Shown here: positions 4,464 to 55,587 of the stretch, piece by piece
Numbering within the stretch: the first letter of the stretch is position 1
Layout of the letters: each line of letters starts with the position of its first letter
Source: Patescibacteria group bacterium
GTDB taxonomy: Bacteria; Patescibacteriota; Microgenomatia; UBA1400; CG1-02-47-37
Assembly (NCBI GenBank): GCA_034718535.1
Contig: JAYEMX010000064.1
Coordinates: forward strand, 4,328 to 68,327
Length of the DNA: 64,000 nt
Direction of reading: 5' to 3'
Notes under the pieces: generated by a model
The model's input: the letters and a program-made list of their open reading frames with translations, nothing else
What the model was told of the DNA's origin: nothing
Database searches by the model: none
Translations under genes and position numbers: made by a program

Positions 4464-5201
4464 TCATGTCAATATGACAGGGTCAGACCCTGTCACTGCA
4501 ATGGTGTGTTCAAACATGCCGGCCATTTGACCGTCTTTAGTAACTATAGTCCAATTATCTTTTGGGTCGGTTTTGGTGTCGCTTGAACCTTTCATGTAGA
4601 TAACCTCAATGGCAATAGTCAGGCCCTTTTTTATAATAGGGGTGTTTTCGATTTTTCCCTCAAGAAAACAGGGAATCATGGGTGGTTCGTGAAGAGTCTT
4701 TCCAATACCGTGGCCGGTTAAATTTCTGGATACATTGTAGCCGTTAGATTCAATAGTGCCTTGAATCGCTTTTGAAATATGTCCAATATGATTATTTACT
4801 TTGGCTTGTTTAATAGCCAAATCCAGGGTTTTTTGGCCGATTTCCAGAAATTTTAATTTTTGAGGATAATCAGTCGGATTACCAACAATAAAACTAATAC
4901 ATGAATCTGTATTAAAACCCTTGTAAAGCATACCAATATCAATAGAAACAATATCGCCCAGTTTTAATTTTTTATCATCGGGAATACCGTGAACCAAGCC
5001 TTCATTTAAATTAATACAGGTGGCCCAAGAATAGCCGGGTACCATGGCGAAATTAGGTTTACCACCGGCTTTTTTAATTAAAGTTTGAGCCTTAGCTTCA
5101 ATTTGACTTAATTTAATTCCGGGTTTGGATATTTTTTTTAAGTCTTGTTTTATTTGGTGTAATTTAGCACCACCTTCGGCCATTAAATTGATTTTATTCA
5201 T
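4464..5201 (-). CDS. map: Methionine aminopeptidase type I
   Basis: MAP metal-binding motifs; the last 8 codons (VTGSDPVILT) are encoded by a REP-1 palindrome. Confidence 0.9.
   Translation of the reverse strand: MNKINLMAEGGAKLHQIKQDLKKISKPGIKLSQIEAKAQTLIKKAGGKPNFAMVPGYSWATCINLNEGLVHGIPDDKKLKLGDIVSIDIGMLYKGFNTDSCISFIVGNPTDYPQKLKFLEIGQKTLDLAIKQAKVNNHIGHISKAIQGTIESNGYNVSRNLTGHGIGKTLHEPPMIPCFLEGKIENTPIIKKGLTIAIEVIYMKGSSDTKTDPKDNWTIVTKDGQMAGMFEHTIAVTGSDPVILT
4475..4495. repeat. REP-1 palindrome tgacagggtcagaccctgtca, embedded in the map 3' coding end
   Basis: Perfect 10+1+10 palindrome identical to the copies flanking RAYT-1. Confidence 0.7.
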
Positions 5202-20574: not shown

Positions 20575-20597
20575 CCTACAAGGAGAGTCCTTGTAGG
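20575..20597. repeat. REP-2 palindrome cctacaaggagagtccttgtagg, 10 nt 3' of the rpsG stop, with a partial duplicated arm (ttttgtaggttt)
   Basis: Same 23-mer as the REP-2 copy after the RAYT-2 stop (55548..55574) and related to the other RAYT-2 copies. Confidence 0.7.
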
Positions 20598-20607
20598 TTT
20601 TGTAGGT

Positions 20608-21087
20608 TTACCAGCGGAAGTGGGCAAAGGCTTTGTTGGATTCGGCAACTTTATGAGCTTGGGTTTTTCTGTCAACGGCACCACCTTGATTTTTTATGGC
20701 ATCTGTTAGTTCGGCGGCTAGTTTTTGATAAAAGTGATGATGTTTTGAGTTTGGTCTTTTTCTGGCGGCATCGATAATCCAACGAATGGCTAGTGACTCT
20801 CTTCTGTTTCCCCTAACAGGCACAGGAACTTGATAGGCAGCTCCACCAACTCTTCTGGATCTAACTTCCATAGTTGGTTTAGCATTGTTAATAGCTTGAC
20901 GTAAAGCAATAATTGGGTCTTCTTTTGTTTGTTTTTTGATAAGTTCCAAAGCTTGATAAACGTGTTTTTGAGCAATTGATTTTTTACCACTATACATAAT
21001 TTTATTAATTATTTTAGCTACCAACTTATTATTATAAAGCGGGTCGGGTTTAGTGATACGTTTGTTTACTTTTCCTGTTCTTGGCAT
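20608..21087 (-). CDS. rpsG: 30S ribosomal protein S7
   Basis: S7 family similarity. Confidence 0.92.
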   Translation of the reverse strand: MPRTGKVNKRITKPDPLYNNKLVAKIINKIMYSGKKSIAQKHVYQALELIKKQTKEDPIIALRQAINNAKPTMEVRSRRVGGAAYQVPVPVRGNRRESLAIRWIIDAARKRPNSKHHHFYQKLAAELTDAIKNQGGAVDRKTQAHKVAESNKAFAHFRW

Positions 21088-35702: not shown

Positions 35703-36845
35703 TTATTGTTTTTGCAATTTTCCTACTGTGATAATAACATCATATTCATTATCATCAGTCAAGGGTGTTTGGTTTTTAATGAGATCATAATCTGAATTTA
35801 GAGATCTTTCTATAATTGTCCAAACAGTTTCCGGAGTATTTGTTTTTAACTGAACAGAGGTTTTTTGGTGATCAAGTTCATCGGCGTTGTCAGCTATGAT
35901 TTCCACAAAGTCTTTGGCCTCTAAAATATCCTTGACTGTGCCAGCTACACCCCTACCTCCAGTACCATTTAGGACTAAAATTTTGTAGTCTGATAGAGTT
36001 ACTTCTATCTCCGGTTCTGGCGAGGGTGAAGGCGAGGGTGAAGGAGTTGGGTTTGGAGAAGCTACTATGAGGGGTGAAGGCGAGGGTTTTAGGTTGTTTT
36101 GCAGAGCATTTCTTTGAACTAAAATACCACCAGTGATGAGGGCGCCTAGGGTTAAGGTGACAATAAAAGCAATGATGAGAGTTTTGTTCGGTTTTGGTTT
36201 TAATTTCTTAGGTTCCGAACTATCCTTCACTTCGTTGCGGACCGCTGGAAGTTCGGAACTTTGAGACTTTGATGGTTTAAGTTTGGTGGGTGATAGTTTT
36301 TTAAGAGAAAGGTTAAGAACTTTTTCGTCTCTACCTTTTAAGTCTTTTTTTAAAGCAAGGCCGATGACTGGATTTGGATTGCGAATTTTTGAGATGGTTT
36401 TTGGTTCGATGGCTTGAAGTTTTAAGTTGGCATCAACAAGAGCTTGAGAGATAAGGGTAAAGATTGATTTGACTGGAGCAAAGGCAATAATTTGTTTGTC
36501 TGATTGAGTTTTTCGACCAGTTTCCTTAAAATCCCAGTTTTCATTTTCTAGAATTTCTGGAATTTCGGGTTTGATTTTTTCTTCGATTAACTTTCGCTCA
36601 TCTTTAACTTTAGTGTTAAAGGGGATGTTTAAACTTAAGACATATGATAATTCATCTGAAAGTAAAATTCTGATTGATTTAGTTTTAAGTTGTTTTTTTA
36701 CCTGAACAAAGGCTTTATCCAAAGAGTCTTTACTCCAAGTAATTTCATCTGACTTAATGATGGCAGGGGCCTTACCTGTCTTAACTAGAACAGCTTTAAG
36801 TTTGTCTTTGGTTAGATAGATGATGGGAATTTTTTTGTTAAACAT
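35703..36845 (-). CDS. Hypothetical membrane protein with a PSPSP linker and a C-terminal LytR_C-like domain; carries an in-frame PAL repeat
   Basis: TM LIIAFIVTLTLGALITGGILV; (SP)n linker; C-terminal segment resembles the LytR/CpsA/Psr C-terminal domain. Confidence 0.35.
   Translation of the reverse strand: MFNKKIPIIYLTKDKLKAVLVKTGKAPAIIKSDEITWSKDSLDKAFVQVKKQLKTKSIRILLSDELSYVLSLNIPFNTKVKDERKLIEEKIKPEIPEILENENWDFKETGRKTQSDKQIIAFAPVKSIFTLISQALVDANLKLQAIEPKTISKIRNPNPVIGLALKKDLKGRDEKVLNLSLKKLSPTKLKPSKSQSSELPAVRNEVKDSSEPKKLKPKPNKTLIIAFIVTLTLGALITGGILVQRNALQNNLKPSPSPLIVASPNPTPSPSPSPSPEPEIEVTLSDYKILVLNGTGGRGVAGTVKDILEAKDFVEIIADNADELDHQKTSVQLKTNTPETVWTIIERSLNSDYDLIKNQTPLTDDNEYDVIITVGKLQKQ
36209..36261. 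repeat. PAL element variant (ggttccgaac...gttcggaac) inside the CDS at 35703..36845
   Basis: Inverted arms with a 30-nt spacer, in-frame. Confidence 0.5.
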
Positions 36846-37287: not shown

Positions 37288-37322
37288 ATGACAGTGACAG
37301 GGTCAGACCCTGTCACTGTCAT
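37288..37322. repeat. REP-1 extended perfect palindrome (35 nt: atgacagtgacagggtc a gaccctgtcactgtcat) upstream of RAYT-1
   Basis: Perfect 17+1+17 inverted repeat. Confidence 0.75.
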
Positions 37323-37334
37323 GTTCCCTGTGAT

Positions 37335-38030
37335 ATGATTATTAGGATGCCATCAAAGAATAGGAATAAAGTTTATAAAGAAAACGGATATTATCATGTT
37401 TATAATCGTGGGGTTGATAAACGAAAAATTTTTATGGATGAACAAGATTATGCTGTTTTTTTGCATTTACTAAAGTATTATCTTTCTCCACCCAGCAAAG
37501 AAGACAAACATCCTTTGTCGGATACTTCTACAGCTGTGATTAGGCCTAGGCCAATTGAAAATTTACATCAAGAGGTTAATTTACTTGCTTATTGTTTGAT
37601 GCCAAACCATTTTCATTTATTGATAAAACAAAAAAGTATTGATGGTATGACAAAACTAATTCATAAACTACTAACTATTTATTCAATGTATTTTAATAGG
37701 CGTCATAAACGTATTGGCCATTTGTTTCAAGGTTGTTATAAGGCAGTTTTAGCTGATAATGACGAGCAGGTTTTGCATCTATCTCGATATATACACCTTA
37801 ATCCAGTTAAGCTGACAGGGTCTGACCCTGTCAGGTGGCCATACTCAAGTTTGGCTTATTATTTAGGGGAGAAAACTGCTAAGTGGGTGAAACCTAAAGA
37901 AATACTTGAGTGTTTTGAAAAGATAGAAAAGAATAAACTAACAAATAAAAACTACAATTCTTATAAAGAATTTGTTTTTGACGATAAAAAAGATTCTAAA
38001 GAAACTGTTGGCAGGTTTTCTATTGATTGA
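37335..38030 (+). mobile_element. RAYT-type HUH tyrosine transposase (IS200/IS605 TnpA-like, Y1). The likely true start is MPSKN at 37347, matching the N-terminus of RAYT-2.
   Basis: YHVYNRG...LMPNHFHLL (HUH)...SRYIHLNPVK (catalytic Tyr); flanked by REP-1 copies and carrying one internally. Confidence 0.8.
37812..37834. repeat. REP-1 palindrome ctgacagggtctgaccctgtcag inside the RAYT-1 CDS, encoding LTGSDPVR
   Basis: Perfect palindrome, in-frame. Confidence 0.7.
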
Positions 38031-38048
38031 CAGGGTCAGACCCTGTCA
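38028..38048. repeat. REP-1 palindrome; its first 3 nt are the RAYT-1 TGA stop
   Basis: tgacagggtcagaccctgtca. Confidence 0.75.
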
Positions 38049-38063
38049 GTGGTGTATTTCTTT

Positions 38064-46846: not shown

Positions 46847-46857
46847 AATTTTTCTTT

Positions 46858-46934
46858 AAGGTTGAACCCTGTCTCACTTTGTTCGACTAAACATCTCGAC
46901 TTTTAGTCGGGATTTCCGGAGAGGGTTCAACCTT
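46858..46934. other. Nested inverted-repeat structured element of about 80 nt in the infB to DHH-like spacer (outer aaggttgaaccct / agggttcaacctt; inner gactaaa / tttagtc)
   Basis: Read directly. Confidence 0.4.
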
Positions 46935-46986
46935 ATTATTTCTACTTAATTTCTGATTATCTCAAAGATATCCTTTAAAGTCAATG

Positions 46987-54870: not shown

Positions 54871-55048
54871 CTTATACTTGAGGGTGTATACTGAATTTAA
54901 TGCCTTCAAAAAATGCTTTAAAAATCTATAAAGAAGATTCTTATTATCATATTTATAATCGAGGAGTGGCTAAGGCAAATATTTTTAAAGACAAAAAGGA
55001 TTATAAAGTTTTTCTTGATTATTTGAAAATATATTTATCTCCTGTCGA

Positions 55049-55071
55049 CCTACAAGGAGAGTCCTTGAAGG
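55049..55071. repeat. REP-2 copy inside the RAYT-2 CDS (encodes DLQGESLKV)
   Basis: cctacaaggagagtccttgaagg in-frame. Confidence 0.65.
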
Positions 55072-55352
55072 TTTCACCATCAAGAGAATTGAAAAATTAT
55101 TCAGATGAAATTATCTTGGTTGCTTATTGCTTAATGCCAAACCATTTTCACTTATTAATTCATCAAAAAAATAAGGATTCTATTAATTACTTTATGAGAT
55201 CTTTGGCTACAAAATATTCAAGATATTTTAATACTAGATATGATAGGGTTGGCCCATTATTTCAAGGTGTTTATAAAGCTGTTAAGGTTGACAATGAAGA
55301 TCAGTTGGTTTATTTGACTAAATATATTCATCGAAATCCTATTAATATCCTA

Positions 55353-55375
55353 CCTACGAGGAGAGTCCTTGTAGG
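55353..55375. repeat. REP-2 copy inside the RAYT-2 CDS (encodes LPTRRVLVGY), directly after the NPI(N) motif
   Basis: cctacgaggagagtccttgtagg in-frame. Confidence 0.65.
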
Positions 55376-55547
55376 TTATAAATACTCTAGTTATGGAAAT
55401 TACTTGGGATTATTTAAACAGGTCTGGGTAAAGCCAAATATGATTCTTGGATTGTTTTCTGCCTCTAATAAGTTATTTAGTTATAAAAGTTTTGTGGAAG
55501 AATTAGAAGAAGATTATAGTTCTATAAATAAAATTGTTCTTGATTAG

Positions 55548-55574
55548 CACCTACAAGGAGAGTCCTTGTAGGTG
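55548..55574. repeat. REP-2 perfect palindrome cacctacaaggagagtccttgtaggtg, 1 nt after the RAYT-2 TAG stop, followed by a partial arm duplication
   Basis: Read directly. Confidence 0.75.
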
Positions 55575-55587
55575 CTTGTAGGTTGAG

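Follow-up and report, generated by a model that had tools for sequence, protein, structure and literature searches.

The 64,000-nt stretch of Patescibacteria DNA analysed here (contig JAYEMX010000064.1; hereafter the window) encodes a predicted HUH/Y1 transposase, RAYT-1 (RAYT, REP-associated tyrosine transposase; REP, repetitive extragenic palindrome), together with copies of a short palindrome, REP-1, that stand upstream of the gene, inside it and over its stop codon. Our favoured reading, which we regard as probable, is that RAYT-1 is a vertically inherited and currently non-mobile HUH/Y1 nuclease-transposase of single-stranded DNA (ssDNA), and that REP-1 is its cognate hairpin. It was observed that genes and palindromes form cognate pairs, that the copies at one gene evolve in concert, that the gene is inherited vertically and that the repeat is compatible with coding. 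If it works as E. coli TnpA_REP and the TnpA of IS608 do, RAYT-1 would bind the palindrome extruded as a hairpin on ssDNA, cleave nearby through a 5'-phosphotyrosine intermediate at Tyr148 and then transfer the strand; such an activity would seed new copies and refresh or homogenise the old ones. RAYT-1 belongs to the RAYT-containing class 2 TnpA_Y1, within a very large clade specific to Patescibacteria.

RAYT-1 and the REP-1 copies of the window

The features of RAYT-1 and REP-1 in the window are the following.

37288 to 37322: upstream copy of REP-1, a perfect 35-nt palindrome (17+1+17), with the 21-nt core at 37295-37315
37310 to 37339, plus strand: promoter-like site, CTGTCA, an 18-nt spacer and TG-n-TATGAT (consensus match)
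37347 to 38030, plus strand: RAYT-1 coding sequence, 227 aa, predicted class 2 TnpA_Y1 (RAYT/TIRYT-like) HUH nuclease
37335 to 38030, plus strand: the same gene from the alternative start ATG 37335, 231 aa
37530 to 37537, plus strand: ACAGCTGT, possible remnant of an internal REP, in the loop between helix A and strand 2 (position in1)
37608 to 37616, plus strand: HUH motif, in PNHFHLL
37788 to 37805, plus strand: tyrosine motif YIHLNP (in RYIHLNPVK), with the Tyr codon at 37788-37790
37813 to 37833, plus strand: internal copy of REP-1 (position in2), translated in frame as (L)TGSDPV(R), immediately following the helix of the catalytic tyrosine
38028 to 38048: downstream copy of REP-1, TGACAGGGTCAGACCCTGTCA, whose TGA (38028-38030) is the stop codon of RAYT-1
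4475 to 4495: solitary copy of REP-1, inside the 3' end of the methionine aminopeptidase (MetAP) gene map (4464 to 5201, minus strand), where it encodes VTGSDPV in ...EHTIAVTGSDPVILT*

RAYT-1 had been described preliminarily as a 231-aa HUH/Y1 transposase with the motifs HFHLL and YIHLNPVK. Both motifs were recovered, and the Pfam search proposed at that time gave a significant match to PF01797 (Y1_Tnp; 38.8 bits against a cut-off of 23, E=1.2e-9). The length needs revision, as the start is likelier to be ATG 37347: the homologues, including a 100%-identical 227-aa database protein, and the second transposase of the window, RAYT-2, all begin with MPSKN. With E values of up to 0.1 allowed, PF01797 was the only Pfam family found on RAYT-1, and no Bac_DnaA_C, HTH_23 or HTH_28 C-terminal domain was obtained. 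The motif set comprised NHFH, LFQG, YIHLNP and PYSS, with a tyrosine motif of the Y---NP type, i.e. that of class 2 TnpA_Y1. Across 26 aligned sequences of the RAYT-1 family, H88, F89, H90 and Y148 were invariant or nearly so.

An AlphaFold2 model based on the family alignment (pLDDT 81.5, pTM 0.82) showed the expected beta-alpha-beta-beta-alpha-beta-alpha core, with Y148 on the helix 139-157 and four short helices at the C-terminus. The palindrome-encoded segments appeared in this model as lower-confidence loops (residues ~47-76 and ~158-168). A Foldseek comparison with PDB placed 4ER8, which is E. coli TnpA_REP in complex with a REP hairpin, as the top fold match (E=4e-6), followed by the TnpA proteins of IS608 and ISDra2. 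In sequence searches of PDB, carried out with the family profile and with RAYT-1 alone, no Y1 transposase was matched; the sole match, a DpnII methyltransferase (E=0.0055), was dismissed as noise. The earlier identification as a RAYT is therefore sound as far as the Y1/HUH class that contains the RAYTs is concerned, by the Y---NP motif and by a fold nearest to 4ER8, and falls short at the NCBIfam RAYT cut-off (see below).

At least 7965 database homologues of RAYT-1 were found. The named ones came almost all from Patescibacteria, their named hosts being Beckwith-, Woese-, Chisholm- and Shapirobacteria. Several homologues (P0011, P0021; L099:4340-4378; L and P numbers denote loci and proteins of our collection) are annotated with spurious N-terminal extensions through the upstream palindrome, e.g. 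MTGSNPV... and MTGPDPV..., because the repeat has an open reading frame (ORF).

The 35-nt palindrome upstream of the gene was present as first described, and the position of the downstream copy, with its TGA as the stop codon, proved exact. The core of the upstream copy is lengthened by 7 nt on each arm (ATGACAG...CTGTCAT) in the source genome only; at the orthologous loci L099 and L040 the core lies at the same site without this extension. As ssDNA, the 35-nt palindrome gave a folding energy of -18.5 kcal/mol (z = -8.8 against shuffles). The internal copy, which agrees with the flanking copies in 20 of its 21 bases and has T in place of A at the centre, gave a hairpin of -11.7 kcal/mol (z -5.4), and all REP-1 copies of the window form stable ssDNA hairpins (z -4.3 to -8.8). 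Allowing up to three mismatches, the REP-1 21-mer was found four times in the window, and not at all in 100 dinucleotide-preserving shuffles. The GC content is 52-61% for the palindromes against 35% for the window. That the palindrome would be repeated elsewhere was thus correctly foreseen: to the four copies in the window, including that in map, further copies in related genomes can be added. The flanking picture given earlier holds in that RAYT-1 has its own palindrome on both sides; it was incomplete, the copies at 37813-37833 and 4475-4495 having been missed, and the word 'extragenic' fails. At in1, the alignment shows RAYT-1 to be three residues shorter than relatives that carry ACAGGGTTTAACCCTGT (LTGFNPV) at this position, and it may be speculated from the sequence that ACAGCTGT is the leftover of an internal REP with a deleted centre.

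The REP-1 unit measures 21 nt and so spans 7 codons. It can be read through in two frames, as xTGSDPV or DRVRPC, and the third holds a TGA, so that REP-1 can sit in coding regions or provide a stop codon. The overlap of stop codon and REP was also seen at L099, L052 and L096. Together with a T-rich tail (to ~38060), the downstream copy fits the pattern of an intrinsic terminator (terminator-like site at 38026-38050). No REPIN-type doublet was present in the 64-kb window; adjacent doublets do occur in some metagenomic relatives. When the whole window was searched with Rfam at the gathering threshold and with ARAGORN, no RNA family and no tRNA were found, so the palindromes are not known RNA families. 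The same holds for an intergenic inverted repeat at 46857-46935, whose 17-nt arms are 94% complementary and lie 45 nt apart (TAAGGTTGAACCCTGTC ... GAGAGGGTTCAACCTTA); its arm includes GGTTGAACCCTGTC, like the REP variants of L096 and L139.

Cognate palindromes at the genes of the family

The window also encodes a second transposase, which has a different palindrome of its own. RAYT-2 is 49% identical to RAYT-1 and matches PF01797 with 44.4 bits; the palindrome around it, REP-2, is CCTACAAGGA-GAG-TCCTTGTAGG and differs from REP-1. Its features in the window are as follows.

54900 to 55547, plus strand: RAYT-2, 215 aa
54848: REP-2 upstream of RAYT-2
55049: REP-2 inside RAYT-2, read as DLQGESLKV
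55353: REP-2 inside RAYT-2, read as LPTRRVLVG, right after YIHRNP
55550: REP-2 downstream of RAYT-2, 2 nt past the TAG stop codon, with the stem extended to 14 bp
20575 to 20597: solitary REP-2, 7-11 nt downstream of the stop codon of a minus-strand gene
447 to 469: solitary degenerate REP-2, CCTACAGGGTCAGTCCTTGAAGG, 7-11 nt downstream of the stop codon of a minus-strand gene, with a REP-1-like centre

Both perfect copies of REP-2 are followed by a short repeat of the end of their own 3' arm (..CCTTGTAGGttttGTAGGTT and ..CCTTGTAGGtgcttGTAGGTT, at 20589-20610 and 55564-55585). A similar local duplication of an arm end was noted at REP-1, where ATGACAG precedes the core at 37288 and GACTGACAGG is repeated in L040. 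These duplications may be traces of cleavage and rejoining, or of slippage.

The arrangement was then followed through a family set of 84 genes (83 distinct proteins) for which the DNA was at hand from Patescibacteria genomes and metagenomes: scanning genomes for the REP-1 core yielded 12, searching metagenomes with the alignment added about 70, and the window itself contributed two. Flank statistics were computed for the 79 genes with adequate flanks, a match being defined as at least 12 nt shared. The upstream and downstream flanks matched each other at 57 of the 79 genes. Within the genes, in1 (the loop before the HUH strand, from helix A to strand 2) matched the gene's own flanks in 26/79 and in2 (just after the tyrosine helix) in 28/79; 43 genes had at least one internal copy, 11 had both, and a hairpin lay over the stop codon in 21. 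The rate of 12-nt matches to the flanks of other loci was about 1%, and a control region between HUH and Tyr gave 1/79. No hairpin at all was found at eight of the 84 genes. The palindromes are lineage-specific (e.g. GACAGGGCC.., CTGCAGGGCC.., CTTCAGGTTC.. and TTTAAAGGTC..), and within a lineage the same palindrome is met ahead of the gene, again at its stop codon or across it, and internally at in1 or in2, which indicates that the copies at one gene evolve in concert. Furthermore, the copies at one gene share quirks; at L079, L103, L126 and L186, for instance, an identical wobble or an identical asymmetric loop is repeated from copy to copy. These quirks argue for copying, as opposed to independent evolution or parallel selection for any hairpin.

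It might be supposed that the palindromes belong to the host (as terminators, sites of another protein, uptake or restriction sequences), have nothing to do with the transposase and lie beside it by coincidence. The downstream REP-1 is indeed terminator-like, as are the two solitary copies of REP-2, which follow stop codons at 7-11 nt, and perfect dyad symmetry would suit a dimeric binder of double-stranded DNA. Nevertheless, with a gene's own palindrome on both sides in 57/79 cases and inside it in 43/79, and with many copies in the middle of long ORFs, where a terminator would be harmful, we consider this highly improbable. The uptake-sequence version was rejected, as the density is far too low.

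A second explanation, restricted to the internal copies, is that they merely reflect a required peptide, LTGxxPV, the likeness to the palindrome being secondary. It is clear from the 26-member alignment that the segment after YIHLNP reads L-T-[GR]-x-x-[PL]-V in nearly all of these closest homologues, as a required peptide would. In this segment, however, Gly pairs with Pro and Arg with Leu, which is the covariation that base pairing of in-frame ACAGGG..CCCTGT as against ACAAGG..CCTTGT predicts. Other lineages encode PTRRVLV, LPAGPGPAG, TSGSELEV or SQGVPLR at the same place, and each of these fits the palindrome flanking its own gene. The copies at in1 and in2 of one gene are moreover read in different frames, as in RAYT-2, and L042 uses the DRVGPCQ frame; conservation is thus at the level of DNA and not of the peptide. 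The same DNA also occurs in unrelated genes. On the evidence of frame and covariation the peptide explanation was rejected, and we find it scarcely credible.

The regular placement of the internal copies can be read in another way, namely that these copies and the one overlapping the promoter-like site are selected cis-regulatory sites, by which the enzyme throttles its own expression through hairpins in the gene or mRNA. The same two positions are filled in many distant lineages, and the REP sites form islands of identity in diverged orthologues. There are also hints at the ends of the gene. The upstream copy overlaps the -35-like hexamer of a site resembling an extended -10 promoter, its right arm containing the first hexamer, and the downstream copy is terminator-like. 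The second hexamer stops 8 nt before ATG 37347, so the site, judged from its consensus, would yield a near-leaderless RAYT-1 mRNA; by eye, a string like TG-n-TAnnnT can also be made out in orthologues, 7-8 nt ahead of the ATG. In the 1-kb region around RAYT-1, on the other hand, promoter-like sites were no commoner than in shuffles, so that the match does not rise above background. Nor are the internal copies essential, being absent from 36 of the 79 genes, with no hairpin at all at 8/84; both positions are predicted low-confidence loops in which replacements may merely be tolerated, and the same palindrome lies in unrelated housekeeping genes, where autoregulation would make no sense. In a variant of this explanation, recombination between in2 and the downstream copy deletes the C-terminal domain and so changes the activity, which would be in keeping with the autoinhibitory C-terminal tail of E. 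coli TnpA_REP, whose deletion activates cleavage (PMC3479197); in either form, the cis-regulatory explanation would refine our favoured reading and does not exclude it. An autoregulatory role of the internal copies is possible, and selected cis-regulatory sites as the whole explanation appear unlikely to us. Under the nuclease-transposase reading, the internal copies would be tolerated by-products of an enzyme that prefers the DNA beside its own gene, and they would persist only in two loops that tolerate replacement of 7-9 residues. The absence of internal copies from 36/79 genes fits such by-products.

Dispersal, inheritance and replacement at map

The exact 19-nt core GACAGGGTCNGACCCTGTC was found at 99 loci of the genome collection. 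About 30 of them are single matches in unrelated, mostly high-GC genomes; as about 17 matches would be expected by chance for 18 specified bases in 596 Gb (both strands, uniform base composition), these are of the order expected and were set aside. The remaining copies cluster in a few Patescibacteria genomes, with 17 in a Beckwithbacteria metagenome-assembled genome (MAG), eight in the complete 802-kb Woesebacteria genome CP055308 and 4-9 in several others. Among 84 copies of the candidate phyla radiation (CPR) type, 39 were located within ORFs of 150 aa or more, translated as xTGSDPV in 32 cases and as DRV[RG]PC in seven. Another nine end an ORF of 100 aa or longer with their TGA, and the other 36 fall between genes or in short ORFs. 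The host genes confirmed by Pfam encode a class I aminoacyl-tRNA synthetase, PheT (the beta subunit of phenylalanyl-tRNA synthetase), RecJ, UvrC, MgsA and transketolase, as well as a DEAD-box helicase, an AMP-binding enzyme, a Mur ligase and a ZIP transporter. Beside the cores, the sole regularity was a T/A pair extending the palindrome; the stems are perfect.

The suspicion of a CPR-like genome was confirmed by the Patescibacteria origin of the window, the nearest genome being a Candidatus Beckwithbacteria MAG (JBDRQW01). It is syntenic with the window, at a nucleotide identity of 82-85% around map (L001) and 78% around RAYT-1 (L099). The RAYT-1 orthologues at L099, L040 and P0004 are all convergent to the same HTH_25 gene, with an FtsK gene near. 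In the DNA alignment of L099, L040 and the window (75-80% identity), the three REP sites are conspicuously conserved, with nothing but flips of the central base and one mismatch in one copy. The neighbours of RAYT-1 that Pfam could identify were HTH_25, FtsK and LytR_C, none of them TnpB, and the 129-aa ORF immediately upstream of RAYT-1 gave no Pfam match. On plasmids the family was met in 14 of 72,556 records and among phages in one record, all of them only distant relatives with at most 32% identity. Synteny and this rarity on plasmids and phages together indicate that the element behaves as a resident gene and not as an active insertion sequence (IS).

These data bear directly on the possibility that palindrome, gene and palindrome make up an autonomous IS of the IS200/IS605 type, in which the palindromes would be the hairpins of the left and right ends and the solitary copies would be ends left on their own or miniature derivatives. 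RAYT-1 shares its fold and Pfam family with the IS200/IS605 TnpA proteins, hairpins adjoin both ends of the gene, and at one metagenomic locus (L178) a second copy lies 2 kb from the first. The tyrosine motif is nevertheless Y---NP (class 2) and not the Y---Q of IS200, the gene keeps a conserved, syntenic site in four or more related lineages, diverged by 20-25%, and RAYT-1 and RAYT-2, the two copies in the window, share only 49% identity and differ in their palindromes. With TnpB missing among the Pfam-identified neighbours and the family nearly absent from plasmids and phages, we regard an autonomous IS as very unlikely.

Some observations on the genomic setting may be added. The window is a housekeeping stretch of the ribosomal-protein/rpoBC type, whose genes lie nearly all on the minus strand up to ~59 kb; RAYT-1 and RAYT-2 are both on the plus strand, opposite to their neighbours. 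The pieces of JBDRQW01 hold at least four divergent transposase paralogs (L033, L070, L080 and L099), 36-78% identical to RAYT-1, and several pairs of RAYT and palindrome may be co-resident in one genome of ~1 Mb. A number of records (L005, L007, L008, L010, L013, L014, L040 and others) are titled 'uncultured Gammaproteobacteria' or 'Pseudomonadales' (binchicken/TPA assemblies) and have genes of the Patescibacteria type; these taxonomic labels look wrong, L040 being syntenic with the window.

The solitary copy in map allowed the state with and without REP-1 to be compared. The gene at 4464-5201 was identified as a MetAP by Pfam (Peptidase_M24), and its C-terminus aligns with those of solved MetAPs without a gap (..vtgsdpvilt as against ..itkegprilt, ..itengaeilt and ..vtdngceilt). 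The closest orthologues without REP (67-69% identical) have GTC ACC AAA AAC GGC CCA GTT ATT (VTKNGPVI) or GTT ACA AAA TCC GGC CCC ATT ATT (VTKSGPII) at these codons; the REP-less map sequence is GTTACAAAATCCGGCCCCATT. The window and the Beckwithbacteria MAG both have GTG ACA GGG TCT GAC CCT GTC AT. In another lineage (L182), ACAGGGTCCGGCCCTGT (VTGSGPV) occupies the same map codons, and this is the variant that flanks the RAYT of P0004/L186 and occurs inside it; the idea that the two belong to the same genome was dropped, since the samples differ. Palindromes seem to have landed at the 3' end of map more than once. At L182:1063-1110 (ERZ24794656 NODE_29023), the REP-1 variant in the last map codons is followed, right after the stop codon, by a palindrome of another family, ACCTTCAAGGTCCAACCTTGAAGGT.

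A different outcome was seen in a gene with a LytR_C domain. In L040, a disordered linker of its product has an insertion of 17 residues that includes the translation of an in-frame REP-1 (KVTGSDPVT; L040:4140-4158), and the orthologue in the window (35703-36845), which adjoins RAYT-1, is without it. Replacement in map and insertion in the LytR_C gene show that both modes occur. A stronger proposal would be that the enzyme drives a templated 'overwrite', in which sequences that already look like the palindrome are turned into perfect copies at constant length. It would explain the change of 9/21 bases in map without an indel (from GTT ACA AAA TCC GGC CCC ATT to GTG ACA GGG TCT GAC CCT GTC), the four identical copies per gene in spite of drift between lineages, and the presence of half of the family in frame in essential genes of gene-dense genomes. 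We rate this proposal as quite unlikely. If true, it would amount to a natural short-patch rewriting of DNA dependent on an HUH enzyme, with the RAYT gene rewriting two loops of its own product.

Several points weigh against the reading of RAYT-1 as a resident nuclease-transposase with REP-1 as its hairpin. By a comparison of motifs alone, RAYT-1 (227 aa) fits the signature of subclass 2.1/TIRYT, a group reported without REPs. The link of RAYT-1 to the binding, cutting or moving of REP-1 is one of association, drawn from sequences. REP-1 has no 5' GT[AG]G foot, and the four bases beside ~115 REP-1 cores vary. The copy number is low (4 in the 64-kb window, and 4-17 exact cores in a related genome), so that any 'proliferation' is modest, and the census was drawn from relatives and from 8-kb pieces around exact matches. 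The internal copies stand at fixed positions across distant lineages, which could reflect selection for function. Finally, the copy in map, with 9 of 21 bases replaced and no indel, is not what simple cut-and-paste transposition predicts.

Comparison with known RAYT, TIRYT and IS200/IS605 systems

To our knowledge, RAYTs and REPs have been studied almost wholly in Proteobacteria and Cyanobacteria and in complete genomes. No literature on RAYT/REP in Patescibacteria/CPR was found, and the earlier surveys do not mention CPR phyla.

Class 2 TnpA_Y1, which includes the RAYTs, is defined by Y---NP as against Y---Q in IS200 (PMC6006769). Its subclass 2.1 has the signature NH[YF]H, FQ, Y[IV]HLNP and SS in the proximal tail, with a median length of 238 aa (Quentin et al. 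2018, Table 1, PMC6006769). This subclass corresponds to Group 1 of Bertels and was equated with the TIRYTs ('TIRtron') of Di Nocera; no REP-like sequences were found near its members (PMC6006769). The 16-mers flanking Group 1 RAYTs have ~12 copies per replicon (PMC5581495), and the repeats of TIRYTs may run into the gene at its 5' or 3' end, some of these terminal inverted repeats (TIRs) being self-complementary (PMC3733652). The RAYT-1 clade resembles this group in its low copy number per genome and its divergent paralogs, the 4-17 REP-1 cores being comparable to the ~12 copies of the 16-mers. Unlike subclass 2.1, it has dispersed short perfect palindromes, which flank 57/79 genes, and copies inside the gene, none of which have been reported for that subclass; RAYT-1 also lacks, by Pfam, the Bac_DnaA_C, HTH_23 or HTH_28 domain of subgroup members. 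The GGGGWSAS motif of TIRYTs matches REP-1 AGGGTCAG in 7/8 positions, which is insufficient for a claim of homology, and other lineages of the clade carry AAGGTCGG, AGGGCCAG, AGGTTC and others.

With the canonical RAYT/REP system (REPtron; E. coli TnpA_REP, subclass 2.2), RAYT-1 shares the fold, the Y---NP motif, a cognate flanking palindrome for each paralog and a fixed locus. E. coli TnpA_REP is a monomer that needs a 5' GTAG foot for binding and cleavage and cuts at CT (PMC3479197). REP-1, by contrast, has no GT[AG]G foot, so the rules of recognition and cleavage of TnpA_REP are not simply transferable; its stem is perfect in place of imperfect or bulged, its copies number tens or fewer as against hundreds, about half of them are intragenic, and RAYT-1 gave no sequence match to 4ER8. 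Against the NCBIfam equivalog NF047646 (REP_Tyr_transpos), the cut-off of which is 80 bits, RAYT-1 scored 47.2 bits, with a partial match (profile positions 44-146). Pseudomonas Group 2/3 RAYTs are associated with REPINs, doublets of which type were lacking in the window. The arrangement had been called 'classic' for a RAYT in the preliminary description, a label that cannot be kept in view of the perfect, footless palindrome, about half of whose copies are intragenic, its low copy number, the lack of a doublet in the window, the low NCBIfam score, the absence of a sequence match to any solved Y1 transposase and the subclass 2.1 motifs.

In subclass 2.4 (Bertels Group 4; Cyanobacteria and Bacteroidetes), too, the RAYT gene has its own REP inserted at peripheral loops, in phase, so that the reading frame is kept (PMC6006769). 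These internal REPs are of variable length, with a long or 'double-foot' GT[AG]G, and the tyrosine motif is YIxNNP as compared with YIHLNP in RAYT-1; in the RAYT-1 clade the internal copies are perfect palindromes of 21-27 nt, which stand before HuH and after the Y helix and leave the protein near its native length. In-frame REPs in unrelated genes are known as well, many of them in genes for repair, replication and aminoacyl-tRNA synthetases, although most REPs are intergenic (Di Nocera et al. 2013, PMC3733652). REP-1 resembles such intragenic REPs and the Rickettsia palindromic elements (RPE) in its in-frame translation in housekeeping genes, here those for UvrC, RecJ, a RecG-like helicase, MgsA, PheT and a class I aminoacyl-tRNA synthetase among others. 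It differs from them in being shorter (7 codons), in the high share of copies that are intragenic (~46%) or supply a stop codon (11%), and in the overwrite in place of insertion at map.

IS200/IS605 elements are mobile and multi-copy; their left and right ends differ, and they are often accompanied by tnpB. The HUH/Y1 fold and the hairpins beside both ends of the gene are common to RAYT-1 and the TnpA proteins of IS608 and ISDra2, and recognition of ssDNA hairpins may be so by analogy. RAYT-1 differs from them in its Y---NP motif, and no near-identical copies, distinct ends or tnpB partner were seen.

The clade as a whole is very large, each member having a lineage-specific short perfect palindrome. 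It offers a natural and compact system for asking how HUH enzymes recognise hairpins without a guide tetranucleotide, how dispersed copies stay identical, and how selfish or domesticated repeats survive where intergenic space is scarce. For the annotation of Patescibacteria MAGs, peptides of the [LMV]TGSDPV type and REP-derived stop codons are a recurrent cause of odd insertions, gene ends and long N-termini. In-frame REPs, REPs within RAYT genes and repeats over the ends of tyrosine transposase genes all have precedents. What is different here is the host phylum, a subclass 2.1-like protein with cognate palindromes and a short, perfect and footless palindrome, together with the two hot spots outside the HuH-Y interval, the overlap with the stop codon, the high intragenic fraction and the overwrite in map.

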